64,000 nt of DNA from Dudresnaya verticillata (Eukaryota), in the NCBI GenBank assembly GCA_977862235.1, contig OZ374557.1, positions 4,092,001-4,156,000 on the forward strand, read 5' to 3'. Below are positions 39,985-63,152 of this stretch, one piece after another (position 1 is the first letter of the stretch; every line of letters begins with the position of its first letter). The notes beneath the pieces are model-generated. The model had not been told where the DNA came from. It saw nothing but the letters and a program-made list of their open reading frames with translations, and did not search any database. The translations under genes were made by a program, and so were the position numbers.

Positions 39985-39985
39985 C

Positions 39986-40672
39986 TGTAGTAGTATGGCG
40001 CGACGAGCCAGTAGCCCGCTAAACGACAAGGACAGCTGTCCCGTGCGTGCACATACCCTAACGAGGGTAGCTCAAAATGGGGAGTTGGTAGAGACTTGAG
40101 GGAAAAGGAAAAAGGCAAGCGTGCCTGAAAGAAAGGCAAAAAGGGCGGCGCCACCCTAACACTCGTAGAGTACAAAGCCGTACGAGGCTAAAGCTTCTAA
40201 AGCACCTGAAAGGGGGAGTACGGTGAGCCCGTGTAGACCAAAGAAAGGGTACAGACCCGAAACCCACCGTAGGGTTCTATTCAGCAGACCCCTGCTAGTC
40301 AGGGCGTAATAAATATGGCGAAGGCCGAAAGCGCCTTCGGCGCTATTCCTATTCTAAGCTATCGCAGTTAGCGTTAATAATTACAATGAGATAGTGAGCG
40401 GTCGTACTCCGCCCTGCGCACGTCAGGTGCTCATGACTCGGGTGCGCTCCTGCGCGTAAAGCCATGATAAATCAGCCAATCACCCAACCATCTCATTGGC
40501 GTCGTGCTGTTCCCAGCAATGCCATACAGAGTGGCCAGCAATGCATTGGGCCTTACAGCGCACCTGCACGTGCAGCGCATTACAGGCGCATGCCACGCGC
40601 AGTATTACCCGCGCATTACAGGCGCAGAACACGTGTACGTGCTTACAGCCCCTGGCGGCTCATTGTACCACA
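39986..40672 (-). repeat. Gypsy 5' LTR
   Basis: TG...CA ends; similar to 27332-28020 and 26070-26761. Confidence 0.95.
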
Positions 40673-41790: not shown

Positions 41791-41954
41791 TCTATTCTTT
41801 CGTGGAGGACTGTTCAGGAGTGCGCATTTTTAATTGAAATTCAAGTTGCCGTGGAGGACTGTTTAGCGATTGAGACAAGTCCTCCAGACGAGCAATCGGG
41901 ATTGTACACAAATCCTGAACATTCCTCCAGCCAATCCCGATTGGGATCCAGATT

Positions 41955-42195
41955 CTGAACAGTCCTCCAGGCTTGATCAGTCCTCCAGACTTGATCAGTC
42001 CTCCAGGCCTGAACAGTCCTCCAGTCCTGAACAGTCCTCCAGGCCTGAACAGTCCTCCAGTCCTGAACAGTCCTCCAGGCCTGAACAGTCCTCCAGGCCT
42101 GAACAGTCCTCCAGCCCTGATCAGTCCTCCAGCCCTGATCAGTCCTCCAGCCCTGATCAGTCCCCCAGCCCTGAGCGTCCTCCAGCCCTGAACAG
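41955..42195 (+). repeat. 18-bp minisatellite (ctgaacagtcctccaggc-like), ~13 copies
   Basis: Read directly from the sequence; two inverted units lie upstream at 41801-41818 and ~41850-41866. Confidence 0.95.
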
Positions 42196-42502
42196 TGTAG
42201 CGGAGAGCTGTTGGAAAACGCCTCAGCCTCTGAACTCCGAAGGTTTGGCAGCATGATCAGTCCTATGAACAATCTTGCAACTCGAGCAGTCTTCCGAAGC
42301 ATTGTCCAGCATTCACCGGGGTGTATCGAGCTTGGCGGGAGGTATCGAGGGCATGTCGCGCAACGAGATGTGCACGTCTTGAAAGTTTTCAACCAGGTCT
42401 CACCCAATCCGGATTCCAATCGGGATTCGATCACTGAACGGATCCAATCTATTGATCCGATCTGTGGCGTTTGCGGAAATCGTGAGATCAGTTTGCACTG
42501 GC

Positions 42503-42558
42503 TCAGATGAGACCAGTTGGCACCGGATCAGATGAGAACAGTTGGCACCGGATCAGAT
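42503..42558 (+). repeat. 25-bp tandem duplication cagatgag(a/c)...cagttggcaccggat
   Basis: Two adjacent near-identical copies. Confidence 0.85.
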
Positions 42559-43386
42559 CCGCATGACGGCCGCCGTTGATGCGCAACCGTAATTGCGCTC
42601 CCGCCAAAATGACGGCGCACAATTGTATTTAAGGAGCCCTGGCGTCGCAGTGACCCCGCGACGGCAGGACTCTCACTGAGCGAACGAATCTCCCTCACCC
42701 GAAACGGACGAGGAAGCAAGGTGAGTGCGGATCTCATTGCGTTCCTACAATTCGGTATCGAAGCGGACGACGTTATCCGGTTTCCATTGCGTGCTCACAG
42801 CGCTCGACGTAGGAGAAGTGACTAACCGCTCGAATTTCAACTGTTCCTTTGCGAGACGAAGCGATCGAAGAGCGTGTGCGGCGGGGATCAATCGACGAGC
42901 GGTAACGGTCAGCGAAAGCGCCGTTCGACATTGGATCAATTTCTTTCAATTACTTCCCGAGCGGAGGAATTGACGGTAAGTAGTTGACACATCTATGAGA
43001 TGTTCTTGGAAATTTGCAAGCTCTGCACATTTGCCTGGTCCTGATCGTAACTCGAGAGAGCGAAGTCGGTTTGGTTTCTAACCTGAATGCTTGTATGGAA
43101 TGCTTGTATGGACTTGTTGCGTGACTTAATAGTTGACGACAGAACGGTAAGCTATCCATTGTTGCGGGGGGTGAGAAGCTCTTGCAAAGATAAGACATGT
43201 TTTGGCGAAGATGTGCAAGAGTTGCAAATTTGCAAAAGCGTCTCATTTGATGCGAGGTGTCGAAACTCTGATGATTGCTAACCTTCAATATGAATCAACT
43301 GGTGTGCTCAATGTTTGTGTTGTTAGACCACTTGAATTTGTGAAAGATAGCATAGTCTTGAATCCCTGTTTCAACATTCCGTGGAG

Positions 43387-43950
43387 ATGAAGTTGCCGGA
43401 AACCGAGCACAATGAGGTTGGGAAGGCGAAGGCAAACTTGGCGAAGTTCAACCTGCGTTTGATTCCAGAAGTAGCCGAGCTGGGTTGCGATGCATGCAGG
43501 CATGCTGTGTTCCTCGCGGAACCTGACAACTTGCATCTTCTGAGGCATATAAGGAAGTGCCAGCCCAGCCTCTCCGTAAGTCGTGCACAATGTGTAGAAC
43601 TATGCAAGTCGTGGAGTTGCATTCGCCGAAATGTCACCAGGACATGTGATGACCACGAACATCAAGTCTACATCGGTACTGAAGCAATCAACAGTGGAAG
43701 TCGAGCGCTTGTGCGCAAGATCCCCTTCTTGACCGTCATGGATTGCTTTCCCTGCCCGTCTTGTAGGTTTTTGTCTGTATCCACGGATGGTTTGAGGAAG
43801 CATATGGATACCGAGCATGAAGGTTTGGGGAAGGCGGTGGGACTCGCAAAGTTGAAGCAGTTGAAGACGGTGAAGTGCCAGAAGCTCTTCAAGTCACGTG
43901 CTCCTGGGTATGCGTTTCCGGTGGGCGAAGGGGGAATCCGAGAGAGCTGA
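43387..43950 (+). CDS. DUF3505/OrsD-like zinc-finger region; probably the N-terminus of the downstream helicase protein, separated by a frameshift
   Basis: CDACRHAV...LLRHIRKC, FPCPSCRF...LRKHMDTEH and VKCQKLF resemble the N-termini of fungal telomere-linked RecQ helicases. It overlaps the next ORF in the +1 frame. Confidence 0.65.
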   Translation: MKLPETEHNEVGKAKANLAKFNLRLIPEVAELGCDACRHAVFLAEPDNLHLLRHIRKCQPSLSVSRAQCVELCKSWSCIRRNVTRTCDDHEHQVYIGTEAINSGSRALVRKIPFLTVMDCFPCPSCRFLSVSTDGLRKHMDTEHEGLGKAVGLAKLKQLKTVKCQKLFKSRAPGYAFPVGEGGIRES

Positions 43951-46900
43951 CGCATGCTCCGGCAGTGGAAATGTAGCTCGTCTTCTCCAAGAGCTCAGCC
44001 ATGTTCGGAAGGAGAGCGAGTGTGTGGAGAAGTCCGGGGGAGGTGAGGTTCGTAAGATGGGCGGGTTTGCTAGCGCCACAAGGCCAGATGTGAAGCTCGA
44101 GGAACTCAATCTGAGCATGGAGGAAGCCGTTGAGTTGGCCGGGGCGGCTGTACGCGGGAGTACTATGGATGGAATCGATGAGCAAGAGCTTGGAAAGTGG
44201 ACAACGAAAACGATAATTTCGTTGTTCCACACTGCACGGGAATATTACCGGAGGCCAAACATGGCGATTTCGAAGGTTATGATAGCCGTGCGGGCCCCTC
44301 CAGGAGCTAATCGGACTGAGAAGAACGAGTTTGCGTGGGTGCAGCGACAGTCGGAGAAGAGGTACGCGAGCTTATTGGCTCGTGTTGTGCTGACTCTTCT
44401 TCGCATGACCGTCAGAGCGCCGGGTGACAAGGGGTTGGTTGGAAATGAACAACTTATTGGTGCATGTAGGAGTGTGATGCAGGCATACCGAGGAGAGCAG
44501 GGATGTGACGTTGTTGAAAATTTTCAAGAGGTGCACAATGTGACGACACCCTCTGTCTTGGCAATGTACGGTGTGCTATCGGCGTTGTTCTATGAGAAGG
44601 CGAGTGTGGACCACGGAAGTCGCCACTGTGCTGCCCATGTATTGACGGCCTGTCTGGGTGTCAAGCGTGCAGGGAAGGGGAACACCTACTCCCAAGGGAA
44701 GGATATGTCTCCAATCCTCGCAGCTTTGGCGTATGCTTGTTCTCGCTGTGCCTTCATAGACATTTGTGGGACGGGGGAGAACGGGAGTTGCGATGAGAAG
44801 CTGACCGAGGTTGAGACCAAGCACGCAGCTGGCGGAAGTCTTGGAATACATGTCCTGCAAGCCATTTGCCTTCAGGCTAGAAGATTTAGGACTGAAGAGT
44901 ATGCCCGAAACACTTGGATGGCGTGCGACAATCCCGAGCACGAGGGATTGTACTGCGGATATGTGGAGGGACTTCACATCAGTCCGAAAGATATCGGAGG
45001 GAGCGTGTTGTGGATGCAATCCGAGGCTGTCAAGTTAATGTTCTCGCGGAATGGGATCATGAACGGAGTAAGACCACCGGCGAATTTGCAAGCTCGTCTT
45101 TCCGCGATGGTGGATAACACATCCAAGAAGGATGTGCATTACGGTATTGTTGTCGAAGAGAAGAATGCCGAAACCGTTGAAGAATGCCGAGGGTATGTTG
45201 CAGCTGCAGTGAAGGAGATGGGAAGTCTTGACGAGAAGGGGTTCAACAAACGGGCGAGGGAGATGCTGTCGATGTTGAGGAAGTTCAACGTTCTCGTGAT
45301 AGCTTGCATGCACCTTTCTGGTGGGAATGTATCTCGGGGGACAGAGCTTGGGCACTTGGCTGTTCGCAACACGAGCAATGGTCCGCGGGGAATCCAACTT
45401 CCTGGTGGTCCTCGAATTGCTCTCATCCCGTCCTACGATAAGACGAGGAACATGAAGAGGGGTAGGATGCGCGTCATTAGCAAGCACCCTGATGTGGTGA
45501 CGAGTAACCTGGTGAAGTTGATGATTGTGGTTGGAATGGAGCTTCGTCTGGCATTGTCACGTGTGCTGGGCGGGGGCAACTCAGGTTCTGGTCTCGAAGT
45601 GGATGAAGACGGGAAGTACAACTACTTGATGCCCACGGATAGACATCGCAACGGATGCTTGACGGAGGCAGCCAACATGTGGAGAAGATTTGGTTTGCCG
45701 GAAGAATACAAGGCGGAGACTCATCGACAATGGCTTGGAGGCTATGCCAACGACAAGGCCATGGAAGATGCGAATGTTGGATATGTGGCAGGGATACTGA
45801 ACCATGGCCAATCGGTAGGAGACGAGGAAGCTGGTACAAGGAACGGGAACCTTGGCAGTACAATACAGCTTCAGGGGGCGCACTCGGTACACATTGCCAA
45901 AAGTCTGTATGGAAGGTGTACTCCCAACATTGCTGGTGGAGGCAATGTCGATGACCGCAGTATGAAGCGATTTAAGGCTGCCTCCGACGCTTGGCTGGAG
46001 GATTGTGGCCTAGCCGACCGAAAGGATTGGAATTCTCTGGAGGTGGATCTTGTGATCAGAGAAGAAGAAGAGGTGGGGCCGGAAGAACCGAACGAAAATG
46101 GGAACGGGAGCTGCGCTCTGCGTGAAGGGCTTGATGGTGGTAGGCAACCTGATGTTCGGAGGAAGTTGTTGTTTCCAAAGTGTCCGCAAGACGAACCGTG
46201 CCGGCCAACGAAGAGGACACCAGAACCGGTGGGCGATGGGCGAAATGACGAGCAAGTTGGTTGCGAGGAGGGGGTTTTGATCTCGCTAGACGATGTGGAC
46301 GAAATTCAGCAATTTAGCCTGAGCAGCCAAGACCGGTTGGGGAATGTGGCATGTGGAGACGAAAGTATTGAGGAGTTAACCGGTTCCGCGTATCCAGATA
46401 ATGCTTCACAGCGCAGAGATGTTGAACACTGTGACGAGCCTGTCAGCCATGCGGCCACAGCGCACCGGCTTGACAACACGGGAAACCAAGGATGTGCAAC
46501 AGTTGGAAATTTCCAAGAGCTGCACAACTCTGATGGCGGGGTTTCCGTTGCGTACCCGCATCATGTCCCGCATTGTGACACGGTTGAAAATTTTGAAGAG
46601 TGTCACAAGTCTGGTTTCAACGATGAGCAGATCGCAACCCGGAGTACTGCAGCTTCCGCAGCTTCCGGATCTGAAACGCTCGCAAATCATCGAGAGTGTC
46701 TCAATGTAGAAGCTAGTGGGAAGCAATCGTCCCCGAACGACACCTCGCGATGTGCAGATGTTGAAAATTTTCAAGCTCTGCACAAGAATGAAACGAGCAG
46801 AGGATCCGGAAGGAAGCTCCAAAAGAAGGCGAGCGATGATGTCGAGGCAACCACCAACTCGGGATTGGAAGCGTCTGGGAAAGGCGACGAAGGTGGGAAG

Positions 46901-49510
46901 GCTGGGAAGAAGAGGGTCCGCTTCGCAGGAGAAGTTGAGGCCTACGACGTGGCAGGCAAACGTCAGAAGATGTCGTGTGGCAGTATGGCCCCGAGCGTGC
47001 GGCTTCGCGGAACCAGTTCTGGGACGAGGGCAACAACGCAGCAGTCTGTACGCGAAGGGCCGAGGGGGGAGTTGGTGAGGAATGGAACGGAAGGAGGAGG
47101 TTCGGAAGGGAAAAGGCCATGTCTACGAGGGGAGGGACGGTGTTCGTCAGGGAATGCTGAAAGGAGTGAAGAAAGGAGTGAACTACTAAGAAAATTCGCC
47201 ACTGCTGTGGAAGAAATGGAGAAGCGCAAGGAGGAATTCGAAACAGCAATCAGAAAGAGTGACGAAGAATTTACGCGGGCAAGGCAAGAGCGTGACAACT
47301 CGAGAGAGGGAGGCCGAAACGAATCTAGTGCACGTAGAAGGGGTGGGGATCCGAGAAGCAGCACTGTACTGGCGACAAACGGTGCAGCTGCATGGGATAT
47401 ACAGGAATGCCTTGCTCGTGCTGTTGGGGTTCCAAATGCGGAGTTTCGCTCCGAGAACCAGAGGCAGGCAATGGAACACGTGATCCGCCGGGAAAGCGAT
47501 GCTTTGGTAGTGTTGAGAACTGGGGGTGGCAAAACCGCAGTAATATTTGGACCGGCGTTGTGCGAGGAAGGTGTAACGATATTTATTTGCCCGTTACGGG
47601 CCTTGAGAGAGGAGATCAAGACGCGGTGTGACGCGATTAACCTGTCGGCTATGTCCTTTGATGATGTGGACTCGGTAGAAGATCTTCAAGGGTTTAACCA
47701 GGGCGTGATACTTACAGCTCCTGAGAACGTGTCATCGCGAAGGTACAAGGGGGCTCTTCGGGTGCTGCACAGTGAGGGCAAACTGATGAGGGTTGTTGTT
47801 GATGAGGCCCATCTCGTTGTCGTTGCAGCACACTACCGTGACTGTATGCTACGCATGCGACATGCACGTCCGTGCGGTGTGACGGTGCCTGTCGTTCTGA
47901 TGACGGCAACTTCTCCTCTGCACCTACAGCGCCGGATAATTGCTGCGAGTGGTGCTGATGTGGACGACACGGTGGTTATACGGGGCAGCTTGAGGCGGGA
48001 CAATTTGGGGTTTGCTGTCCAAATGCTGAAGGGTTCCAAGGCGGAGGAAGTATTTGGTCCAGTTGGAGACAGTGTCGTCGAAGGTGTACGGACGGCGATG
48101 TCGAGCCGCGGCGGTGGCAAAGTACTCGTATGTGTGTTGACGAAGTGCGATGCTGAGGAGATCCATGCAGCCCTGCGTGCGAGGCGGGAGCTGTCACGAG
48201 ACCGGAAGATCAGGATCACGCAGCATCACGGAGGTATGAGTGCAGAGGCGCGCGCCACGAGCGTGAACACATGGAGAACGAATGGAGCGGAAATGCTTAG
48301 TGTATGCGTGATGGTGGCAACGGAGGGCTTTGGGACTGGTATTGATGCACCTGATGTGGCCCAGACCATCATTGTTGGAAGCAGCCGGTCTCTTCTCGAG
48401 ATGTACCAAGTTTCTGGTCGTGTGGGCCGAGATGGGGGAAGCGGTGCCGTGTCCATTCTGCACCACCGCGATTTCGAAAATCAGGCGAATGTCCGGGACA
48501 CGGAGGCTGTGACGGCGCTGAAGCGGTTTCAACGATGGGCCGAGGACACGTCAAAGTGTCGGTGGGCGGAACTCGCCCGGTACCTTGGATGTACGGATGG
48601 GCCACTGGAGTGCTGGAGGCGGAGGGAGATGCGGCAAGATTCGACCGTACAGTTATGTGATGTGTGTACGAGGCTTGTTTCAGCGGGTGAAGAAGAGGAG
48701 CCCGTTATCTCATCTCTAGAGACTTTCTCTTCAGGCGAGATACCTGGATCCAGCGGACCGGGCCAATCACGTGACCGTGACATCCGGAGAGCGGATGAAA
48801 ACAGAATAGCCGTTGTTCGCCAGCCAACAGCGACTGTACGCAGGCTCGCTGCTGCCCACCACGGCTTTACCGCCATGCAGGTCTGTGGAGACAATTCAGC
48901 CAGTTCTGATATTGTATGCACTCCAGAGGACAGTGTAGTTGCAGCTGTTGGCACGTCGAGCGGTGTTGGCACGGCCGTAGCGGAGCTTCGAGATCTTGCG
49001 ATGAAGCTGGGTGTAATATGCCCGCCGTGTGCGGGGAGAGCTGATCCTGGCGATGAGCAGGCAATCAAAAGGTGCCAGGAAGGGCGGCATTCCAGGGTGT
49101 GCTATTATTGGCATTGCACGCGTTGCTTGGGGACAGGGCACAGTTCAAATCAATGCACTGTACGGCCCTGGAAACGACGTGGAGGGAAGTTTGTTGGTGG
49201 TTGTTCGGAGTGCTCCATCAGAACGTTTGGATCCGAAAAGACGCATGTTGGGAGTGGCAGTCCGAAAAGGGGCCAGAATGAATACGGCTCAGCAGAGCGC
49301 TGCCCATTCACCAAACCGGTTGAAATGGCCATGATGATGTGGGAGACGAAGCCGAGGAGGGCCGAGATGCTTGCCCACAAGGGGATGCAACGGTTCCGAA
49401 GGTGCAAGACGTCGAAGGCGTTTTGCGAAGAGCTAGTTTGGGACAGACCTGGACGGTGCCCGGGTATTCTTGAATTTTGTAGATACGCCGTGGAAGTACT
49501 GGGTCTGTAG
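43898..49510 (+). CDS. Tyrosine-recombinase-like domain fused to a RecQ-family SF2 helicase with C-terminal Cys/His clusters (telomere-linked-helicase-like)
   Basis: Helicase motifs FRSENQRQA, LRTGGGKT, PLRAL, VVDEAH, MTAT, HHGGM, VATEGFGTGID, YQVSGRVGRDG and an RQC-like CRW...CDVC. Recombinase-like motifs upstream: HLSGGNVSRGTEL, YDKT, ETHRQ, QGAHS..IAKSLYG. The helicase call is firm; the recombinase call is an inference. Confidence 0.85.
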   Translation: MLLGMRFRWAKGESERADACSGSGNVARLLQELSHVRKESECVEKSGGGEVRKMGGFASATRPDVKLEELNLSMEEAVELAGAAVRGSTMDGIDEQELGKWTTKTIISLFHTAREYYRRPNMAISKVMIAVRAPPGANRTEKNEFAWVQRQSEKRYASLLARVVLTLLRMTVRAPGDKGLVGNEQLIGACRSVMQAYRGEQGCDVVENFQEVHNVTTPSVLAMYGVLSALFYEKASVDHGSRHCAAHVLTACLGVKRAGKGNTYSQGKDMSPILAALAYACSRCAFIDICGTGENGSCDEKLTEVETKHAAGGSLGIHVLQAICLQARRFRTEEYARNTWMACDNPEHEGLYCGYVEGLHISPKDIGGSVLWMQSEAVKLMFSRNGIMNGVRPPANLQARLSAMVDNTSKKDVHYGIVVEEKNAETVEECRGYVAAAVKEMGSLDEKGFNKRAREMLSMLRKFNVLVIACMHLSGGNVSRGTELGHLAVRNTSNGPRGIQLPGGPRIALIPSYDKTRNMKRGRMRVISKHPDVVTSNLVKLMIVVGMELRLALSRVLGGGNSGSGLEVDEDGKYNYLMPTDRHRNGCLTEAANMWRRFGLPEEYKAETHRQWLGGYANDKAMEDANVGYVAGILNHGQSVGDEEAGTRNGNLGSTIQLQGAHSVHIAKSLYGRCTPNIAGGGNVDDRSMKRFKAASDAWLEDCGLADRKDWNSLEVDLVIREEEEVGPEEPNENGNGSCALREGLDGGRQPDVRRKLLFPKCPQDEPCRPTKRTPEPVGDGRNDEQVGCEEGVLISLDDVDEIQQFSLSSQDRLGNVACGDESIEELTGSAYPDNASQRRDVEHCDEPVSHAATAHRLDNTGNQGCATVGNFQELHNSDGGVSVAYPHHVPHCDTVENFEECHKSGFNDEQIATRSTAASAASGSETLANHRECLNVEASGKQSSPNDTSRCADVENFQALHKNETSRGSGRKLQKKASDDVEATTNSGLEASGKGDEGGKAGKKRVRFAGEVEAYDVAGKRQKMSCGSMAPSVRLRGTSSGTRATTQQSVREGPRGELVRNGTEGGGSEGKRPCLRGEGRCSSGNAERSEERSELLRKFATAVEEMEKRKEEFETAIRKSDEEFTRARQERDNSREGGRNESSARRRGGDPRSSTVLATNGAAAWDIQECLARAVGVPNAEFRSENQRQAMEHVIRRESDALVVLRTGGGKTAVIFGPALCEEGVTIFICPLRALREEIKTRCDAINLSAMSFDDVDSVEDLQGFNQGVILTAPENVSSRRYKGALRVLHSEGKLMRVVVDEAHLVVVAAHYRDCMLRMRHARPCGVTVPVVLMTATSPLHLQRRIIAASGADVDDTVVIRGSLRRDNLGFAVQMLKGSKAEEVFGPVGDSVVEGVRTAMSSRGGGKVLVCVLTKCDAEEIHAALRARRELSRDRKIRITQHHGGMSAEARATSVNTWRTNGAEMLSVCVMVATEGFGTGIDAPDVAQTIIVGSSRSLLEMYQVSGRVGRDGGSGAVSILHHRDFENQANVRDTEAVTALKRFQRWAEDTSKCRWAELARYLGCTDGPLECWRRREMRQDSTVQLCDVCTRLVSAGEEEEPVISSLETFSSGEIPGSSGPGQSRDRDIRRADENRIAVVRQPTATVRRLAAAHHGFTAMQVCGDNSASSDIVCTPEDSVVAAVGTSSGVGTAVAELRDLAMKLGVICPPCAGRADPGDEQAIKRCQEGRHSRVCYYWHCTRCLGTGHSSNQCTVRPWKRRGGKFVGGCSECSIRTFGSEKTHVGSGSPKRGQNEYGSAERCPFTKPVEMAMMMWETKPRRAEMLAHKGMQRFRRCKTSKAFCEELVWDRPGRCPGILEFCRYAVEVLGL

Positions 49511-49570
49511 TAGAGTAATAGTGCAACGGGCGACATAAAGTGAATTTGAACACACGTATTGTGTATAGAC

Positions 49571-50275
49571 TGTGAGACTTTTGAAAATTTCCGAGAGCTT
49601 CACAGAACGGGCGGTACAGTATGAATGAAACGCGACTGCCTGTGAAGCTCTTGAAAATTTACAACAGTCGCACTGAAACTGTACATCTTGTAGCGGCGTC
49701 CGTTGCTTCCAGACGACTCTTGAAAATTTCCGACATCGTCAGATGCAGACAATTGTGTTTTTGCACGAAGGGTGAGACTCGTAAACATTTCCGAGAGTTT
49801 CCCGCAACCACGGAAGGCGGTTTAGAACAGACGGGTTGTGCAGCTCTTGCAGATTTACAAGAGCTGCACAATGTAAATGTTGTAGGGATTTCGATTGCTT
49901 TTGTGCAACTCTGGAAAACTTCCAACAGCTTCACGTACAGACAATGGTAGTGCTGCACGAAGGATGAGACTCTTGAAAAATCCGGAGGACCACGGAATGC
50001 GGTTGAGAACAGACGGTTTGTGCAGCTCTTGCAAATTTACAAGAGCTGCACAGTAACCCGTATATGTTGTAATGATGTCGATTGTGCAACCCTTGAAAAT
50101 TTCCAACAGCTGCACATAAACACAATGGTAGTGCTGCACGAAGAATGAGACTCTTGAAAAATCCGGTGGACCACGGAATGCGGTTGAGAACAGACGGTTT
50201 GTGCAGCTCTTGCAAATTTACAAGAGCTGCACAGTAACCCGTATATGTTGCAGTGATGTCGATTGCTTTTGTGCA
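49571..50275 (+). repeat. Array of 34-bp palindromic motifs downstream of the helicase gene, partly organised as ~181-bp tandem units
   Basis: Clear motifs start at 49571, 49641, 49837, 49902, 50019, 50083 and 50200, with degenerate ones at ~49710, 49771, 49963 and 50144. Perfect 13-bp arms at 49837, 50019 and 50200. Confidence 0.93.
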
Positions 50276-50906
50276 ACACGTACTATCGGAATGAAATGCT
50301 TCGACTTGTTGTGGTGGGTGGGGTGTATGTGCATCGCAGGGAGTACCGAAGGGAGCGGGAAGTTGTCCTTGACTGTAGGGCAGCGGTAGCGGGTGTGGCG
50401 CGTGCAGAACAATGAAATGCACAGGGAAGAAAATCCTCGACGCGGGGTGGCGGCTTGTGTAGCATGCGGTGCGTTCCGGCGAGTGTAAGCTGCTTGGGCA
50501 CGGCGGTAGTCGGTCTCGAACGCGAGGCCATGGGGCGGGCGGAGGCAACGGACCCACACCATGTTTGGTGGGACAGTTGATGCGGAAGGCGGGAAGAAAT
50601 TCCGACGGTGGTGGTGTTGCAGCTGGAGTTGTGTGAGGTGGAGAGTGTGCCAGCTGCGCCGGTGGAGCGGGCAGCGGAAACCCCGCAACGACCCGGCTGG
50701 CGGGTGTGCGGGTTTTGGAAGTGCGACGGAGAGGCGCGAGCACAGCAGCCACGCGGTGGGCGCGCACGTTGATGTGGGCGAGGGTATGGGAGGGCGGCGG
50801 CAGTGAAGCTGAGGGGAAGGCCCGAGAACCGAGAAATATTGTCACGGGCGCGGCAGTAGGGCAGGGCAGAGGTTTTGTGCCTGCAACGCGGCGGCGACGA
50901 GGATGC

Positions 50907-51256
50907 GAAGGGCGAGGGCAGGGCGAAGAGGTTGCAGAAGCAGTGGTACGGGAGTGAGGGGAGGGCTTGTTGAGACCGCGGAGGGGAGGGCGTTGCCGGA
51001 AGCTTGCGGCGTGATCGAGGGTGTGGCGAGGAGGAAATGGCGCGGGGTGCGCAACGGGTAGGCACGCAACGCCTAGAATTCTGAGGGCGAGGGCAGGGCG
51101 AAGAGGTTGCAGAAGCGATAGTACGGGAGTGAGGGGAGGGCTTGTTGAGAACGCGGAGGGGAGGGCGTTGCCGCAAGGTTGCGGCGTGATCGCGTCGGTG
51201 TGGCGAGGAGGAAATGGCGCGGGGCGCGCAACGGGTAGGTACGCAACGCCTAGAAT
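50907..51256 (+). repeat. G-rich tandem duplication, period ~177 bp, 2 copies
   Basis: agggcgagggcagggcgaagaggttgcagaagc...cgcaacgcctagaat at ~50907 and ~51084. Confidence 0.9.
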
Positions 51257-54200
51257 GCGCCATGCGCACAGTATGACGCGGGAGTGGGAGCATGGTGGCG
51301 TATGTCGAGGTACTAGAGATCCCCGGGTGAGACGGTTAGAAAAACCCAAAATAATTATAGAAATGGGGACGTGCGGGAAAAGTCGAAACTGACACTGACA
51401 GACACTGACAGAGCCATTTCTGTGGTCTTGCGTAGCTTAGTCGGTGGGCACACAGAAAGTAACATTATTTCTGAACTCCCCGGCGAGCGGCATGGTCGCT
51501 TGGCGAATAGAAGAATAACTTCCATTCCGTTGTGACGAAACCGGGGTAGATGTCGACTTTATTTGCTTTAGGACGTAGTTGCTGGATTGCCGAACTCGAA
51601 TGTCTCCACAGCATCAGCGTTCATGTTCCTCACAACGTTTCAGTAGTGGTTGGATGGTTGGCTCTGTTACTCTCATTTAAATTGTGGTCGATTTCGGTGG
51701 TAGTTGATGCTTGTAGCGGTTGTTCCTGCTCCGTTCCATTACTGTAGAAGTACAATATGATGGTTAGAAACTGGACATACAACTGCCATAGTGAATTTAT
51801 ACAAGCCTGCTTCTGGTTCCGCTTCAGCTGTACTCAAACAAAGTACCATAATATCATTCTTATCGCTTTAGTCAAGTCCTCCCCCAGGGGAGCTTTATTT
51901 TTCTGTCCTTCCCTTCGCGGCATCTTTTCCTCGAATGGAGGTTGTTCATTCTTTTCCTCCCCGCTTCGACTGCCATTCTTTAAATAGAGAGCCGTTGAAC
52001 ATCCACTCCATAGCTGAGACCCAGTATTGGCAACTGGATGCAGGTCGCGCCCGCGAAAGGAGGTCGCGGCGCCAGCATGCCCACGCACCCGAGGCATGAA
52101 GCGGCTTGAAGCTGAGACGTTTGCCTATGTTCTGTTCTCTGAAGCCGTTTGTATTTTTAATTTGTATATGTTACGTTGTACTAGTTTGAGAATTCGCTCT
52201 CCAGCACTTCGAACGCGGTAGACAGGGGAAGGCTGAGACGCGTGGGTAGAGAAAAACGGAGATCCACAACAACATCGAGAGCTATAGCAAAAGATTGATG
52301 GCCACTCATTCAACCTGCTTCTATATAATTTTACGTTTGTTGTCTGCCCGGAAGGGGTTTTGTAAACAAGCTACTGCTACTGACTCACGTTAACACCCGG
52401 ATTCTTTAATAAGCGCGCTCTCAATGTGCGAGCAATGAGGTTTAGCTACAGCAAGTTGTTGTTGGTGCACGAATGCCACGGCCTACTCCTGTCCCGACGC
52501 AGTTCCCGCGCTAACAGAATTGAAGATCGCAGACACAGACATCAAAGACTTGACAATTATCTTGTAATGTACGCAACGCGCTTTCCACTACTTATACAGG
52601 ACGTTCGTGACACCGCTTCGCAGTGGACTACGATTTGCTTCTCACTGTACTTAATCCCCAGCTGCGGCGATGACTGAACGATGTCCAGTGTGTAGCGCCC
52701 CTCGACGACCAGTCGCAGGCGCAGACGCGTGAAACCCCGGTCTGTCCCGAAGGTGTATGATGGGGACGCGCCGATGCAAGGACAGTGGGTGGGCAGTTCT
52801 GGGTCTGTGCTGCACCACTGTCACATTGCCAATGTACCACAACAGTAGTAACATGGTTCTCGTCGCTTGACAAGATGCTTCAATAACGAGCAAGCTGCCG
52901 TAGCTGCCGCGCATATTCTCATCTGCCGCTATCGTCGCGGATGCGGCGGACGGCGCTCGCGGAGGGCGTGCAGTGTAGCGCACGCATCCACGACGATATG
53001 CTTTTGTTTGCTCACCAATTTGAGTACCGTGTGTCGATCTCGTTCTCCTCTTCGCCGCGGTGCACATATGGGTGTCCACGTTTCCCCGCGCACGAATCGT
53101 TCCGTATGTGGTTCTTTCTACGCGCATTGTGTGCGGAGCGGGTACGAAGGTACGGCGCGAGCGCAGGAGGCGGGGGTGACAGTGATCATTAGACGGTGGC
53201 GCGTTTGACGACGCAGCGGACAGACATCCGTGTTCAATTTGTGACAGACGGGCAGGGACGCAAGCGGTATGTATCAATTCCGGGCTCGGCGCCGGGTGGG
53301 TTGTACAGCATTCCATAATACGGGGCGCACACGTTCCTCTCCCTTGCGTCATTGGAGGCTAAGCACGTTGCAACGGAGTGCCAGAGTCGTATAACAATAA
53401 GCGCAGGTGGCGTCGTGATAGCGGTTGCAGAACGCGTCCCGTAGCTATCCATCATGATATAGCTTGCAACTTTTGTAACTTACCCAATGTAGTTGTTCTA
53501 AGTCACCCTACTCGCCACAATCTTTAAACGTCGGAAATGTTAGGGCAAAGCCACTATCCTTCAGAGAAAACAAGCTTTTATGGCATTGTAAAACATTGTT
53601 TGAACAAACAGAAGTGGCGTTACCCATTGCATGCAAACTGAAGCAAGACTGACATGCCTTTCGGCGGCAAGTAAAACTGCTATGAGATGCTCTCACCAGT
53701 GAACCTGGATATGTAAACCACCGCGAGATATGTAAACCCCAAATGCCACCTTGGACTCTCCTACAATAGCCACACGCGTGCCCCAAAAGTTGTTGCAAAT
53801 TTCTACCCCGAGTACAACAAGCACCTTCGTAGCCTGATGACACTCTCGCTGTAGCAAGACAGCACGTCCACGAACAGCGTCGTGCAAATCAAGAAATGCA
53901 ACCCGACTGACGGCGTTTCAGGTGGCGCAGCAACGAAGGACACCGCGTTTGTACCCATAGTCTGCTATCATCGAAGTGCCCGGATTGTCCCTTCACGAGT
54001 TGCAAAGCTCCGTGCTAAGCTAGGCCTCCCGGACGCGTCGCGGAGACCTCACGCTGCCAACGGGAATTGAAGCATACCCTCCTCAACCAGCTGCAGAAAG
54101 TAACAAGAGGTAGCAAGGCCACAGCGGTCTAGGCCGCGGCGCATCCTCCCACCGCATTCCAGCACCGCCCAGACGCAGGGCACCAAACTACACTACGAAA

Positions 54201-57082
54201 TAAGACCACAACTAGGGCTGGACCCCGTAACCAGCAGACCATTAAAAGGCCGTACGCACAACCCTGCAAAATTTGCCCTTCTGTACGTAAAAAAATGCTA
54301 CGCCTCTTGCCGGACGTGCACTGCGCATGCTGTACACTTACCGCGGTTCATTCAGCCTGTTCTCGCTGAACAGGCTGCTATATATTTGGTTTCCTTAAAA
54401 GCAGCACGAAGCATACGGAGAAGCGTTTATGTTATCGGCCGCACCTTCGCTTGGGCAGAGGCATCGCAACAGAGACGTGGCCGTGTAGGGGTTTGATAGC
54501 GCTTGGAAGTCCTGCTTTGGAACGCGATGACCCAATTCTCCGTACCGATCACTATCCTCCGTCAACCAAATCTCTGGTTATTGAGCTGTCACTTGCAGTG
54601 CCTTGAGTAATTGAGACTTGGAATTCTATGACAGCTACTGCGAGAAGCGTTTCTGTGAGTTTCGCGGGGATCTGTCAAGCACATTCCTGGGGGCGTGGCC
54701 TGGGGTTTAAGACAACTACAATCCTTAATGCTTACTATCCAATGTTCGCATTAGCCCCCACCTGTGAAACAACTGACATCCCACCAGAAGAAACATGTTC
54801 AAACGCAGCACTGATGACGGTAGCACCGTAAAACCCCACAACAGTTGCACCAAACGACATCTTTCCCTGCGCTTCTGCCAACCCCGAGCATCATCATTTT
54901 CTCCGTAGGTTTATTGTTTGCTGCTCACCTTTATAAGAAGCGTGTTCCATGTACCTTCGAAGGCCGATATTTACCAGGGAGGTGGGCCCGGCTGTGAATA
55001 GAAACAAGGCAATTATCCCAATGGTTTCGAGCCGAAATGGGTTTTAGTACCTGTCTCGATCAAACCGAAACATTCGCTCATCTTCAGCTCAAGACGTTCA
55101 GTTGCGTCTACCTTTTTGCGTTATGCAGTAGTATTGACGGAAAAATTTCTTCCGCCTATGTACCAGAACATCGCAAATCCTATGATGCAAATTGCAGGGC
55201 AACAACGCCGTGAAAGATGTCTGTACAAGCGTTCGACAACTCGTAGCATCCGTCGCTCCCAGCCACGCCCTCTTCCAAGGAGACCGCAAAACGCCTATCC
55301 CATTTTCCACAACCGAGCGACATAGCCGATCTAAACATCCCGTTCGACCTCGCGCTTTACGTAGCCGACTATTTCCACGCTCACTTCCGGGAAGAAGTAG
55401 CCCTGAACGCGAATCTGGGCCCGTTCCTCGAGCGCCTAGACTCCACCATCCTCCGACTGCATGCTCTGCTCGCCTAACTCCTGCGATACCACCCTATCGA
55501 CGCCGGGCACCAGGTCTGCTGCCCCTGTGGATAGTACCCTCTCGTCGCAATGGAGCTACAACCCACGCTAACCTCGCTCACAGTCGCCACACAGATCACC
55601 GAGGCTGACATTCAGGCCGCGCTTGCACCTGCCAAGCGGTTGTACGTTGCGTTGGAGAATTCAGCCGCTACCGCCGCTGTGCTGGATGCCCTGGTCAGAC
55701 TGGGGCTGCTGTCATCAAGCGGAAGGCAGCCGAGGCCGGTAAATCACTGGCTACTGTTGCACCCATGTTTGCCACTGTGCGGGCGTCTCTCGTTCTATCT
55801 GGTTCGTTCCCAGCAACAGACAGACGGGGACAGCGACGCCATGCAGAGCTGCGGGCAGGTTTACCCGTTGCATCAGTCTGCACAGTGCCATTTTGTCAGA
55901 GTTTTGACATATGCCCGATTTGCTGTCAACGGGGGTAAATATGGCCGACGCAACACTTGATGATGCTGTGTTAAGGCTCAGAACTGCTTGTTTGGTGGCA
56001 CAGGCAATTGGGAAGTAATGTAAAGCCGAGGTGAAAGGGTCTTTTATCCGCGCAAGGAAACTTGTATTACGCGTACTTTTGAAATTGAAATAGCGCCCAA
56101 GCTACAGGACAAGACAAGAACACCACGCGGGCTGACCGCAATGCCCAGCGGGCAATGAAATAGGCGTACACACTAGCCTGCAAACATTCCGCCCCAGTAT
56201 AACGTAGCCATGTACTATGGTACAATGCGTAGTCCGTACGCTTGCCGCGAAGCTTGTACACCCTGATCTCACTGAACAGGCTACCATGTGTATTTACCGC
56301 TACAAAATATCTGCAAAGTGTACGGAACAATGTAGTATGCATGACGTTTAGGGGTTTGGGTCGGACGCCGCGTACTCTCCGCGCATCCTCGTCTCCGCTC
56401 TGCCTGGCTTCCTGCTGGCCACGAAACTCGCCTGGGCCATAACATTCTTCACCCTCACGGCCTCCGCAACGCCCGCACACTGCGTTGTCGACATTCCGCA
56501 CGGGCGAAACCCTGTTTCGCACCCCTTTGTCGAGCGCGTGTTTGAGAGCGACTGGGAGAACCCACAGCCGTTCGTTTTGGATGAGGGTGACACTGGCGAC
56601 GATGGGAGCGCCGTAGATGGCGTCTGAGCATTGCTTGCGCGCTGTCGTGTGCTGGACGCGCAGCCTCCGCCTACGACTCGGACTAAGTATACCGCCCCGC
56701 CCTGTGCAGAACGATTTTCGTCTGGTGTAGCTCGTCTCCATGCATGAAACTTGGTGTTTCCGAGCCCCTTACGTTGCATGGAGTGGCACAACAGCACTAG
56801 ACCCGCCAACGTCCTATGAAGTCCTCTGCCAGTGATCATAACGCAAAGCATCCAAATTTCATTGTGCACTCGGCATGATGCAACCGTGGATGTGCAACAG
56901 CTGCACAACATTATCCACCCCGCATCCGCGGGGCTTCGCCATACCTACAGCCAAACCCGTCTCGCTCGCTTCGCCGCTCGAGCCGCCGTCTCGGAGCTCA
57001 CTTCACCGCGCCCGCGTCAAGCCAACGCTGCAAACTTACGTTAACCTACAAGGGATCTAGCTCTTCACCAAAATTTCAACTA

Positions 57083-57506
57083 CTAGCTGCCATCACCCTT
57101 CTCACCGCAGCTCTTCTCCACCGCCTCGCGCCGCATCTGCAGGACCTGTTCAAGTGGTGGTCGTCCAGTGAGCTGCAACTGCCAGCCCACCCACACATTG
57201 TATACGGCATCCGCGGCCGCCCCGATGAGCGGAATCGTCGTCGCACTGTATACCCACACCAGCCCGGCTGCATCGTACGCCTCCCGGAACATGGGCACGC
57301 CCAGTACTACTGTATCACACGCCTCTGATACCGCGGATGCGCCCCATGGTCGTTTCGTAGTCGATCCCGCCGTACTCCTCAGCCTTGTAAGACGGCGACT
57401 CAATGTCCACAAACTTGATCGACACCGGTAGGCCGTGCTTCTCCAACCGGGTTTGGTGGAAGTTTACCTCTTTCAAACACACCGGTAAGTCGCTGTCATG
57501 TAGCAG
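57083..57506 (-). pseudogene. Pseudogene of a DCC1-like (DUF393) thiol-disulfide oxidoreductase
   Basis: Minus strand reads LLHDSDLPVCLKEVNF...IKFVDIESPSY..EEYGGIDYETTMGRI, then after a frameshift VVLGVPMFREAYDAAGLVWVY...AADAVYNVW...LTGRPPLEQVL. The first Cys of DxxCxxC is lost. Confidence 0.8.
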
Positions 57507-59151
57507 GCAGCACTATTAAACACTTGTGAGCTCAAGATCGGCCCTTGTTGAGGAATTCGTGGGCACATTTCTGCGCGCGTCATTGTCCATCACCCCACAC
57601 TTCCGTCTGTACAATGTATCACCGAGACCCTATTCACGACCAAAAAGCACAGCACTTTGACCATGCTGTAGAATACGCGAGTAGCTTCCAAACATCCAAC
57701 AGAATAGTGCGAGACTCTAACAGAATGGGAGCAGACGTCTGTACTGCGGAGCACAAGCTGAGTGTCTCCACTATGTGCGGCCCCTCATTTGCAAACCAGG
57801 GACCGAATCGTTACACACAAACTTTCGTTAGCGGCTGGGAGGTGCGTCTGAGTCTCAGGTGTGCTGATCGCGTTGAATCTGCGAGTAGGCACAGAAAAGC
57901 GGCATTCCGTGCTCTCAACCTACTGGGGCCTCTTCGTAATGCCCTCAGCAGCAGAGGGGCAAGGAAACTGTGGAACTAATTGCAAAGCAGTTGATATGAA
58001 GTGTTTGTTTGCAGCAGTCAGCAATGGTGGGGGGTGCGTAGAAGGGTCAATATGTACGAGTTGCTGACCACGTTCCGTTCCCCGGCGCCGTTGCAACCGA
58101 AAGATGCTACGAATACCACGGTGCAAAAAGTTACACCCATTATCTTCGCCTTCTTGCTTCGTTTGCGCGACTTCGAAGTGGGGCGCGAGGCCTTGAGCGT
58201 CCTTACCGCGCGCTTGCGACCTGTCTCGATCGGCGGTGGAGCGATTTCGGCCAGCACTACATTGGGTGCCGGAGGCTCGGACCCCATAGTATGCAGTAGT
58301 GGATGTATGAGCAGTGTAGTGTGTACCGCCGCCCAATGCCGGCGTGTGCACGGGGAGTCAGCCGGTGTCATCCACAAGCTTGCATTTTACGAACTTTCCC
58401 GCTTGTCTGTGAAAATAAATCACAGTTGTATGTGGAAACGGGAAAAGTAACGAATAGCAGGGTGCCCAGTATGTGATGATTTGGCGCCACAGTTGCCTTC
58501 CACCGACGTCGGCGCAGCCCTTAAAAAAATCGCGCAACGGCAGGGGCATATAGGGGTTTTCCCACCCGAGCGCAATCGCTATCGACCCGCTACCCCTGCA
58601 GCCCCCCGCAGCCCCTGCAACACCGCATCCACCACGCTCGCCCCTAGCGTTCTGCCGTACCACCCTCGCTACCCTCTCCGTCTACTGCGTTTGACGTTGC
58701 CCGCCCGCGTTGCGCTTTCCTCGCGGCACCGCCCTGCTGCCACCCGCCGTCTGTGCAGTTGGAGCCGCCGTTTCCTGTGTCCTGCTGTTTGCTGCGCCCT
58801 GGACCGCGCCTTCCCGTCTACTTCTACACAGCGCTCTTTTGCTGCCGCCGCTACCGCCGTTGGAACCGAAGCGTTGTTCCGCGCTCGGGCTGCCTCGTGG
58901 ACCTCGCCGCCGCCCGCCAACATCTTCGCTCGAGGAGAGTTGCTGCCGCGTTCTGTGGACCCCTGGGGTCGCGCTGCCGCCGCCGCTAACGATCGGCGTC
59001 ATCTCGCATCGATCGCGACGCCGCCATCAGCCCGCGCAATCCGCTCAATCTAGCTAGAAGTCTATTCTCCCGTGGCCGTTGGCTCCGCCTCTCACGTCGA
59101 CGGGGGAGAAGAGCGACTTACAAGTTGCTGAGAAGTTCGCAAATCCGGGAC

Positions 59152-59510
59152 TGTGCAGTCGCTGCAAATTTTGAGGTCTTGCACAACCCGTACCTTCTTG
59201 GCACTGTGCAGTCGTTGGAAATTTTCAAGCGTTGCTCACTGCGTACCCTCTAGGTACTGTGCAGTCGTCGCAAATTTTCAAACGCTGCACAACTCTTGAT
59301 ACTGTGCAGTCGTCGCAAATTTTCAAACGCTGCACAAATCTTGATACCGTGCAACCGTTGGAAATTTTCAAGCGTTGCACACAACGTACCTTCTAGGTAC
59401 TGTGCAGTCGTTCCAAATTTTCAAACGCTGCACAACTCTTGGCACTGTGCAGTCGTTGCAAATTTTCAAGAGGTGCACAACTTTTGATACTGTTTAATCG
59501 CAAATTTGAA
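59152..59510 (+). repeat. Regular array of seven 34-bp palindromic motifs (plus one degenerate) with 19- or 11-bp linkers
   Basis: Starts at 59152, 59205, 59258, 59303, 59348, 59401 and 59446 (periods 53, 53, 45, 45, 53, 45); consensus tgtgcagtcgttg-caaatttt-caaNNgctgcaca. Confidence 0.95.
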
Positions 59511-59537
59511 AAAGGTAGCTCTACTGACAGTGAAGCG

Positions 59538-62500
59538 ATGGTGAGCCCGAAAAGAGGTGCAGCAAAGGCTCGGAGAGGGCGTAATGCGACCAGAGGTCGA
59601 AAGAAGGGTGCCGGTCGTGGAGACAACGGTAGCACGGCTGATATGGAGGTTAATCAGCCAACTGGTGATGTGAATGATGGGGCAAGGCCTCAACCGAGTG
59701 CGGGTAGAGCAGAAGCAGTGCCAAGTGGGCCCCCTGTACACTCAGAGACAGGGAAACCGACTCCTACATCGTCTCCTGTTGTGAAAGGAAGCGGCGTTCC
59801 CTCCAGCCTCACCGGGCAAGGCAGCGAAGGTGGTAGCAAGACGGGTGCCGCTCGATCAGGTCCCGCTACTAAGAGTACTGGCGATGATGTTGCAGCTATC
59901 AACTCCAGCGGCAAGAAAACGGGAACCCCGAGCGAATTGACTCCGTCGGAGCCCGCGAAGGAAGTCTCAGACCCCCCTGTCGACGAAATGGCAGCACGTG
60001 AGACACCGGAAAATCCCACATCTGCACCGGGTGATTCGTCCCTGAAAACGAGGCAAAAGCGGTTGGCTACGGAAGTTGCAACTGCGGAAAAGGATGCTGC
60101 AACTGCGAAAAAGAAGGGCACGGACTGTCAACGAGAGGACCAAAGTGCAAAGGAAGCGACGCCTCCGCCTCACTCTGCTGTCCCCAACGATCCTGCACTA
60201 CCCCCGGCTGCTGGCGTGAACGGTGGAGCCCAGAAGAATACCCCTCAATCGGACGCAATTGGACGCCAGGCGGACACCCCTGCAGAAGTTGAGGATGAGA
60301 GTGATTCGCCTTGTAAGCCAGACGAGAACGCCGATTCCGAAGCCGGAGTGGAATCGGACGAGATCAGTGCTGCACCCTCGTCGCGTCGCAGCACGAGGAT
60401 AAACCATGCACAGGCTCGAAAGGGGAAGGCAAAACGAACCCGTGGGGAGGCTTTGTCACTCGGGGGTACAGGAGGGCGGAAGGAAGGTGTTTCTCGAGGC
60501 GTGCGTCCACGAAAGAGCACTGGAATACGTTCAGCGCCTGTCCCTGTTGACAATCGCACGCCGGTTCGAGGTGGGGGTTATTTGCCAGGGATGACCGGAT
60601 TGCGCCGCCCCGCTCCGCTCTATACCGGAATTGATGTATCGGATGGAATGGTTACATTGCCGAGACCCCGTGATGCAGACGGAAAAGTGAGTGCCCCGAA
60701 GCTACCACATCCGTCTATTCTACTGGAATTTCTGGACACTTGGAGGGTTGTGCAGAAGCCAAACTCGGAGATGACTGCCACATATCACCAGCACATTGGA
60801 CACAGCGTGTACCCAAACGACGGTGATGGTGTTCTGTGGCCTGTGGCAACCCCTGTGTCCAACATCCGCATCGCAACCCATAGCAACATCCGATCGGTAC
60901 AGCAATCGCTTCTGAGAGGCGGTGATGGTATCCCGAGATGGTTTGAGGGCCTGGGCCAATCCACCCTGATGATTAGAGCAGATGCCCTTGGGGTACATAT
61001 TCCCGATATGTACGTGGAGCGTATTCAAATTGCGGAAGAACCGAGCCCCGGGCAGGATTTTACGGGCCCCGTTTATTTGTACCGGTATCGCAAGGGCTGC
61101 CGCCCGATTCTGCCAGAAAAGTGGCTCGATACGAGTGGCTCTGACCCGAAGCTTCCGGCCAACGCTGTACTTGGGATTAACGATGGAAATGTCCGTCTTT
61201 CAGCGGCAGCTCTCCTCGGTGTTCAGAACATGAAATCCCGTGTCTCTGTCATGGTCATACCGCAGCAGCAACTTGAGGGTCTTAGGCGCAACCGCGAAAA
61301 TATCTTGGAAGCGGCGGCGTTCATTGAAGGGGTCATAACGGGAGTTGCCAACGTGCTCAACGAGGCGACAGCGCATATCGGGACCACCACACCTGTTCAG
61401 ATGGCGTTGGCCTGTGCGCTTCTACGTACCGGGACAGTCAGGCAACTGCCGTCAAGAGTTCATATTCCATCAACAGCAAACGAGGAGGAGAGTCGCTTCG
61501 ATGGGCTGCAGCAATCGATTGTAGCGAAAATCGCGGAAGAACGTAATGAGGAGCAAAATGCGCATGGCCCGGGAGCATCAGACGAGGGGATTGGCGCTAC
61601 TACATCGACACGGGATGTGGGCAGGGCAGGTGAAGAAGGCACTGGGTCGTCTAGGATCGACGAGTGTGAAGCTGTTGAAAATTTACGAGACTTGCACATT
61701 GGTAATCCTGCGACCCGTTCTACCAACTCTGCCAGCCAGCCGACAGCAGTCACTGTGAAGACAGGGGAAACGGGCCCGGAAGAGCATGGGGGAGCCTGTT
61801 TACCGCGGCATCCTGGCGGTCTGACTAAGAGTGCTGGACCTTGTGGCCCGATCAGGCCATGGAGGAAAGAGTTTTGTAAGGAGTACAATAGTTGCTTGGG
61901 GACGCTGATAGAACCGAGCCCTCAGACATACCTCCGAGGTGGGACAGTGGCTGGGGAGCGGTATGGTGTTGTGGCCCGTTCGGCAATCGGGGAGTCTGCG
62001 CCGAACAACCAGAAGAAGGGGAAGAGGAAGAGAACCGGAAGTGATGCCACTCCTGAAACGTCACAGCCCCGAAGTCGCCGGAGAGTAGAGCCGGAGGGGA
62101 AAGCTTCAACGCCGAGTGAATCCCTGGGGCGCAATATAGCAGAACACCCGGGACAGGAAATGTCCGGATTGGAAGGGGAAGGGAAGAAGCAAGACCGAGA
62201 ATCTTTCCTGAACCTCGCGAAGGAAGCGACAGACTTTCTGTTTATCTGCGGATGCGTGGAGATCAGACGCAACCGCATCGTGCATGTCTGTCAAGCTTGT
62301 AAGTCGGATAGCGAACTGATACGCGATGACCTGGCCAGCACTTGGGCCTTGGAGGTACTGGACAAGCGAGATGCTTCTGTGAGCAGCGGTGGATCTCCGA
62401 TTGTATACGCGCTTCCGTATGACGCGGAAAAGTACCGTTACATGAAGGTACTGTTCAACAAGAGTTTAACAACCCTTTTCGGGCCCATGACCCAACCGTC

Positions 62501-63083: not shown

Positions 63084-63152
63084 AACGCAGGAGTGAAGAC
63101 ATGTGCTGCATAATTGCAAACGCAGGAGTGAAGACATGTGCTGCATAATTGC
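63083..63152 (+). repeat. 35-bp tandem duplication aaacgcaggagtgaagacatgtgctgcataattgc
   Basis: Two adjacent identical copies. Confidence 0.9.

Follow-up and report, generated by a model that had tools for sequence, protein, structure and literature searches.

What gathers two dozen copies of one palindrome around a helicase gene, and which protein, if any, reads them? This question is raised by a 64,000-nucleotide stretch of contig OZ374557.1 from Dudresnaya verticillata (the window), in which a preliminary description had reported loxP/FRT-like sites surrounding a recombinase-helicase gene. We found that the palindromes have no orientation, that they accompany a gene which its sequence places in the telomere-linked helicase (TLH) type, with a middle domain predicted to have a tyrosine recombinase fold, and that some homologous loci carry arrays of their own. 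The reading we favour, although we hold its chances to be evenly poised, is that the element's recombinase binds and nicks the palindromes as its cognate sites, likely initiating helicase-aided copying.

Number, shape and placement of the palindromic sites

Scanning with mismatches allowed and with a symmetrised weight matrix (threshold at least 8 bits, judged against 100 shuffles of the window), we identified 24 imperfect 34-bp palindromes, every one within 42369-61698. All 22 site starts listed previously are real, the estimate of about 25 was close, and the matrix added the sites at 46670 and 49710. No site at this threshold lies in positions 1-42368 (expectation 0.08 per shuffled window), as had been noticed before; one extra weak match of an iterated 30-bp matrix at 6600 (leave-one-out 9.5 bits) was taken as chance. 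Tandem duplication (181-bp and 45/53-bp units) accounts for many of the copies at 49.6-50.3 kb and 59.2-59.5 kb, so the 24 sites represent about 11 independent places. The flanks of the sites are unrelated to one another (2.6 of 12 matches) and are not inverted duplicates. Scans for the exact motif gave no match in viral_contigs or metagenome_contigs, and a search of Rfam gave none.

The consensus reads TGTG-MR-N4-TTG-N-AAATTT-N-CAA-N4-TG-CACA. Counted from the centre outward, conservation is 94-96% at positions 1-3, 44% at position 4, 82-96% at positions 5-7, 54-62% at positions 8-11 and 70-96% at positions 12-17, with one inner and one outer conserved block in each arm. The central 6 bp are self-complementary, are conserved as well as the best arm positions and read AAATTT in 20 of the 24 sites. 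The geometry is thus 14-6-14, a self-complementary 6-bp core between arms of 14 bp each. The 13-8-13 geometry proposed earlier is right in that inverted arms of about 13 bp flank a core of 6-8 bp, but the supposed spacer is N-AAATTT-N, in which only the two outer bases vary (44%). This is not the asymmetric, orientation-setting spacer of loxP or FRT; with a symmetric conserved core the site has no orientation, and describing the copy at 42369 as inverted has no meaning. The suggestion that paired changes maintain arm symmetry also failed, with 261 of 374 arm positions paired against 258.5 ± 5.3 after shuffling among the 22 unique sites (p = 0.34) and 13 symmetric double departures where 12.5 were expected.

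The sites do cluster around the helicase gene, as first described, but six lie within open reading frames (ORFs; sites 44504, 46493, 46574, 46670, 46751 and 61665), and the final eight of the series go with a second gene (59538-63083, ORF2) rather than with the helicase gene. That all six in-ORF sites are read in the same frame was rejected as evidence, since they amount to about three independent events and the other frames are open in 13 of 24 and 24 of 24 sites.

A TLH-type gene with a predicted recombinase domain

The ORF at 43874-49510 carries a RecQ-type helicase core by Pfam, and its family profile matches BLM/RECQL5 first. For its middle region HMMER recovered 97 relatives, a family that word-index protein searches had missed; many are full-length OrsD-domain-RecQ proteins of 1500-2300 aa, and the ten that were looked up have no protein name. 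In homologues the zinc-finger/OrsD ORF at 43381-43950 is part of the same protein, OrsD scoring above the Pfam cut-off in three of them (P0004, P0012 and P0046), and here it is out of frame with 43874-49510. The mismatch lies near 43920-43990; a 58-nt GT-AG intron (43908-43965) would restore the frame but delete a conserved F-x-V, and we favour a small indel. A single-sequence model of the OrsD part was set aside for its predicted local distance difference test score (pLDDT) of 33. With zinc fingers/OrsD, a recombinase-like domain and RecQ, the gene is by sequence of the TLH type, and the conserved domain before its helicase, a candidate TLH domain, is homologous to that of a metagenomic locus (L015 below) whose contig runs into a telomere.

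The middle region was modelled from a 39-row alignment (pLDDT 82). When the model was compared with known structures by VIA-align, 17 of the 18 top rows bore the titles of tyrosine recombinases or type IB topoisomerases; XerA matched with Z 9.2 (root-mean-square deviation 3.5, 168 aligned) and Cre with Z 8.1 (5.0, 269 aligned, model 12-575), and the Cre, IntI and XerH matches span both domains of the model. This copy has all five catalytic residues (R at 45335, K at 45440, R at 45725, H at 45881 and Y at 45908), which are conserved at 95-99% in the aligned segments (R 106/111, K 109/111, R 87/92, H 83/85, Y 84/85). The HxxR histidine, three residues before the second Arg, is found in only 2 of 92 aligned segments and is replaced by Glu in this copy. 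The earlier view that the adjacent protein is recombinase-like is therefore borne out at the level of prediction, as an Xer/Cre-type tyrosine recombinase fold with conserved catalytic residues. A search of PHROGs with 39 members gave no integrase match.

Some homologous loci carry palindrome arrays of their own

One metagenome scan provided 18 homologous loci (L001-L018) from 266 pattern matches; the corresponding scan with one peptide pattern, which leaves other family variants unsampled, gave 0 of 31 candidate stretches in viral_contigs and 0 of 67 in prokaryote genomes. By a blind search for families of similar palindromes, followed by refined matrices with shuffles, we found 15 palindromes in L008, 14 in L013, 17 in L011, 9 in L012 and 12 in L017 (shuffle mean 0.0). 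L008 and L013 are 99% alike, leaving four independent array-bearing elements rather than five. Each array family has its own sequence, with 9-11-bp arms and a symmetric 6-bp core (ACATGT; GTCGAC; GTYRAC; GTCGAC/ATCGAT), and the base adjoining the core is variable in two of five families. L016, a sister element of L017, has two sites with L017-type arms and the core CTCGAG in both, the core in L017 being of the GTCGAC/ATCGAT type in 12 of 12. Two further palindrome 'families', in L007 and L018, turned out to be plain tandem repeats. Arrays in distant homologues support the proposed tie between the sites and the gene family. The window matrix matched 0 of the 18 loci, just as none of the locus matrices matches the window. 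Cross-matches between locus matrices occur only among L012, L016 and L017, from L008 on L017 (two) and once on L001. Arm covariation is absent in four of five families, and only L017 lies above chance (p = 0.001, among related copies); such absence implies half-sites that act independently on duplex DNA rather than hairpins.

At orthologous places the loci carry different palindromes. In L008, L011 and L012 the intron after LNSPDP holds an own-family palindrome; in L017 it holds one of L008 type, and in L006 and L007 it has none. The linker after the recombinase domain has an in-frame site of the element's own family in L011 (7027), L012 (4333) and the window. The site therefore differs from one element to the next, which is what a cognate protein would lead one to expect. 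L008, L011 and L012 also begin, like the window's element, with short tandem repeats and interspersed palindromes. Within genes, the sites occupy tolerated positions: of 35 in-gene sites in intron-bearing fungal-type loci, 26 lie between splice-like signals compared with 21-34% of random positions, by a loose pattern applied without RNA to in-gene positions of our own choosing. In a quick tree (90 of 112 rows kept, used only for placing loci), all loci with arrays fall into a single fungal-type clade, within which a subclade without arrays is nested; the clade of the window is far removed from it.

Several of these loci have peculiarities of their own. L008 contains ten short GT/GC-AG intron-like units (2912-3494 and 6233-6440), each with a palindrome and with mini-exons between them, and the right arm often contains a branch-site-like CTAA. 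An intron inside the recombinase domain of L017 (3312-3368), which carries a site of the element's own family, is absent from L008, L011 and L012, and L016 has an insertion at the same place. The L011 gene stops about 40 bp past its last site (7329-7370), with no helicase part within 4 kb downstream. L018 has a 16-bp tandem repeat at its contig end (1-132, telomere-like) and a captured 480-bp piece of the recombinase domain (2177-2654) adjoining a 206-bp inverted-repeat element; L001 has scrambled second copies of recombinase-domain pieces (6743-7335) downstream of its decayed gene.

Binding, nicking or recombination

Given that the sites are confined, change in sequence per element at orthologous places and consist of independent half-sites, we infer that they need a sequence-specific, dimeric, element-encoded protein. 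Counted from its cleavage points, loxP is a 14-6-14 site. Since arm-6-arm is the geometry both of loxP counted in this way and of dif (11-6-11; PMC8371274), the recombinase domain would be the best-fitting binder. In the mechanism we propose, one recombinase domain would occupy each arm, and the catalytic tyrosine would nick where arm and symmetric 6-bp core meet, remaining on the 3' end. Because the HxxR histidine is missing and the sites are many and intragenic, a Cre-type crossover would be the rarer outcome: the fused RecQ helicase (3'-5') and host pathways of recombination or break-induced replication would more often take over the nick, so that copies of the unit would arise in tandem arrays or on other chromosome ends. 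In lacking this histidine the enzyme is reminiscent of Flp H305L, whose covalent nicks trigger break-induced replication (10.1101/2023.12.22.573028). Taken with the RecQ fusion, this suggests that copying to other chromosome ends begins at a nick; tandem TLH arrays in F. oxysporum, described in 10.1101/2024.02.27.582403, match such copying.

A number of observations weigh against this reading. This gene copy is frame-broken unless the 58-nt intron is spliced, and no telomere-type array lies in the window. The Z values of 8-9 are moderate, Foldseek searches of PDB and BFVD gave no match at E ≤ 1e-3, and the absence of the histidine is read from an alignment rather than from coordinates. Moreover, type IB topoisomerases religate well without that histidine, which makes copying from a nick, suggested by analogy, the weakest step of the mechanism. 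The zinc fingers or ORF2 could be the binder instead. Twelve of the 18 loci have no array under three search settings; four of them (L003-L005 and L018) are short or fragmentary, but L006, L007, L014 and L015 (which runs into a TTAGGG telomere) are long, with kilobases of flanking DNA and the full catalytic set, as has the closer but degenerate L001, so arrays are not needed for the domain to persist. Site and enzyme also track imperfectly, in that L017 includes two L008-type sites and the L012 and L017 sites are alike across two sub-clades. Lastly, signs of crossover are missing from the window: we found no crossover scar at a core, no array end falls inside a core, and arm sharing between sites is at 3 against 1.2 expected (p = 0.12).

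A serious rival, though a rather unlikely one, is that the sites are bound and never cut, a dimeric element protein (the zinc-finger/OrsD part, ORF2 or a non-cutting recombinase domain) docking there to regulate, silence, tether or load the helicase. Iterons and baculovirus hr palindromes are precedents for such sites, and the fold matches include Ndc10 and MrpR, recombinase-fold proteins that serve as DNA binders. The placing of clusters directly before each of the two genes and after the helicase gene, independent half-sites, the missing crossover scars and catalytically complete relatives without arrays are all as this account would have them, and an A-tract core could be conserved through shape readout. 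It fits poorly with the symmetric 6-bp core that all five families retain despite unrelated arms, next to a variable base in two of them, with the strong conservation of the catalytic residues, and with the exchange of the core between L016 and L017 while the arms are kept.

Also unlikely, and more plainly so, is a full Cre/lox-type system in which two sites synapse and exchange both strands, yielding excision, inversion, circles and re-integration. With symmetric cores, as in loxPsym, any two sites would react in either orientation; the 14-6-14 geometry, the core identity kept in 20 of 24 sites and the closeness of the Cre and Xer folds all speak for it. However, free recombination among sites of which six lie in coding DNA would shred genes, the arms are degenerate, 90 of 92 segments have no HxxR histidine, and neither flank exchange nor a core junction was found in the window.

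We consider it very improbable that the enzyme acts like a telomere resolvase, cutting 6 bp apart across the symmetry axis and folding the ends into hairpins so as to cap or break chromosome ends. Telomere resolvases, too, are without the HxxR histidine, the core is symmetric here and the gene family is telomere-linked. ResT offers a precedent, as it cleaves 6 bp apart around a symmetry axis and also unwinds DNA 3'-5' (PMC5388405). Set against this, TelK matched the model with Z 4.6 (rank 36) compared with 8-9 for Xer and Cre, the site flanks are not the inverted duplicates that replicated hairpins would leave, and ordinary telomere repeats are found at fungal TLH ends (L015). Least probable of all is a self-spreading or neutral mini-repeat (an introner-like hairpin or a product of local gene conversion) with no protein partner: many copies are indeed tandem duplicates and most fungal-type copies are intronic, but copies also occur in exons, in frame, and in spacers, with unrelated flanks, no arm covariation, none in 42 kb of adjoining host and transposable element (TE) DNA, and different sequences at orthologous positions.

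Layout of the element and its neighbourhood

Coordinates of the element's features in the window
Feature	Position	Strand	Basis
18-bp tandem array, 13.5 copies	41955..42196	none	tandem-repeat search
Palindromic site, upstream	42369..42402	none	30.4 bits
25-bp tandem array, 3 copies	42483..42558	none	tandem-repeat search
Palindromic site, upstream	42996..43029	none	38.4 bits
Isolated half-site	43172..43191	none	15.4 bits, half-site scan
Palindromic site about 140 bp 5' of gene start	43212..43245	none	37.5 bits
N-terminal C2H2 zinc-finger/OrsD (PF12013) part of TLH-type gene	43381..43950	+	Pfam E=5e-4, below cut-off; matches N-termini of full-length homologues
Tyrosine-recombinase-like region (core-binding-like and catalytic domain, 'TLH domain')	44174..46033	+	predicted model, fold comparison, conservation
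In-frame palindromic site	44504..44537	none	46.2 bits
Four in-frame sites (46493, 46574, 46670, 46751)	46493..46784	none	low-complexity linker directly after recombinase domain
RecQ-type SF2 helicase core (DEAD and Helicase_C)	47453..48436	+	Pfam 2e-13 and 7e-12
Downstream array, 8 full sites (49571, 49641, 49710, 49837, 49902, 50019, 50083, 50200) and degenerate ones	49571..50277	none	181-bp tandem unit
Collapsed site, centre deleted between short repeats	56888..56907	none	14.3 bits, half-site scan
Array of 7 sites, spacing 45/53 bp, directly upstream of ORF2	59152..59479	none	matrix and tandem-repeat search
ORF2, 1181 aa	59538..63083	+	Pfam, 0 matches
In-frame palindromic site in low-complexity part of ORF2	61665..61698	none	45.1 bits

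The 18-bp tandem array is the likely left edge of the element, because the DNA to its left is repeated long terminal repeat (LTR)/TE sequence, and it resembles the helicase-associated repeats (HARs) of fungal TLH genes. The first in-frame site falls in a low-confidence loop (block pLDDT 52) of the N-terminal helical domain, a place of variable insertions in homologues. After the helicase core a Cys/His-rich C-terminus reaches 49510, and half or collapsed sites also occur in the downstream array at about 49768-49804. ORF2 bears the sites and is therefore probably a cargo or partner gene of the same element; it has no Pfam family, no usable Atlas match and no relative in the 18 homologous loci or the 97 proteins. 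At its stop there is an exact 35-bp tandem duplication (63083-63152), and a further ORF (63132-64000) runs past the window end; ORF2 and this ORF may be one broken gene.

Between the two genes, a G-rich 175-bp tandem pair (50895-51256) lies 3' of the downstream array and is mirrored by a C-rich tract (58480-59100) before the ORF2 array. GC skew reverses between 52 and 59 kb, and these tracts could be element ends or an inversion. A weak resemblance between 50.3-51.5 kb and 58.3-59.2 kb in inverted orientation (score 67 against a shuffle maximum of 56) was put down to composition.

The 42 kb adjoining the element are host and TE DNA. A single-exon GCN1 gene (10253-18496, plus strand, 2747 aa) has its best named matches in Agarophyton chilense and Gracilaria domingensis (64% identity), which identifies the host as a florideophyte red alga. 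It is followed by a Copia-type ORF (20009-24745, plus strand; RVT_2, zinc knuckle) and by three LTR-like repeats of about 700 bp within 26068-28022 and 39933-40672 (92-95% identity, one inverted) with a decayed Gypsy-like interior. Pfam gave one weak match among the 28 other window ORFs, to Tf2 SH3 in this interior. A 163-aa ORF with no Pfam match (41342-41833) has two weak paralogues in the window (28676-29065 and 25336-25476) and terminates in an inverted copy of the 18-bp repeat.

Relation to known systems

The domain order found here is that of fungal TLH genes, given as C2H2 fingers, a conserved middle domain and RecQ in 10.1101/2024.02.27.582403. Upstream of the M. oryzae TLH genes, PMC1635262 (2006) places HAR-C and HAR-D repeats, that is, short tandem repeats with an interspersed 23-bp imperfect palindrome (HAR-D) that resists truncation; frame-broken paralogues occur in fungi as well. 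The statement that no such sites had been described for this helicase family thus needs correction as to the palindrome and stands as to any link with a recombinase, a word with 0 occurrences in the portions of PMC1635262 and 10.1101/2024.02.27.582403 that were available. Those portions list fungi and a choanoflagellate, whereas the host here is a red alga, and the palindrome here is 34 bp long and also occurs within and 3' of the gene and around a second ORF. Our literature search, with closed-access papers (e.g. Rehmeyer 2009) and bioRxiv supplements outside it, found no paper that gives the TLH domain a recombinase fold or ties palindromes to it.

With Cre/loxP, Flp/FRT and Xer/dif the system shares a predicted two-domain fold, the R-K-R-H-Y residues and two inverted arms around a 6-bp core. 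It differs from them in its symmetric core, in dozens of degenerate sites instead of two exact ones, in sites inside the gene, in an enzyme fused to zinc fingers and RecQ, and in the absent histidine. The symmetric site, a possible 6-bp stagger and the coupled 3'-5' unwinding in ResT recall the telomere resolvases, from which the weak TelK fold match, imperfect dispersed sites and flanks without inverted duplication set it apart. Among eukaryotic mobile elements with a tyrosine recombinase are Crypton, DIRS and Starship, which the predicted domain brings to mind; the RecQ fusion and the internal site arrays distinguish the present element, and the window gene had no Pfam match to the recombinase families of these three at E ≤ 0.1.

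The TLH family itself was known, then, and so was one palindrome next to a TLH gene, which a 2006 paper noted but did not explain. New are a red-algal member of TLH type and element-specific site arrays that co-vary with the recombinase-helicase gene across distant eukaryotes.

Meaning for the TLH family

As 10.1101/2024.02.27.582403 puts it, the 'specific functions remain elusive' of TLH genes; unexplained at fungal chromosome ends for more than 20 years, they now gain a candidate substrate that differs per element. With four or five enzyme-site pairs at hand, the question of cross-specificity becomes directly testable in vitro. If the sites are only bound, the arrays would still define the element and its regulator. 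If they are cut, TLH regions would be elements that propagate themselves, in fungi and red algae alike, by a new mechanism joining recombinase and helicase, and native eukaryotic recombinases with orthogonal sites could be drawn from them. More tentatively, and as a possibility that we think somewhat doubtful, TLH genes may be the engines of unrecognised cross-kingdom eukaryotic mobile elements, in which fusions of a tyrosine recombinase with RecQ act on element-specific, orientation-free palindromes as orthogonal enzyme-site pairs, copying and reshuffling chromosome-end DNA in a loxPsym-like manner.

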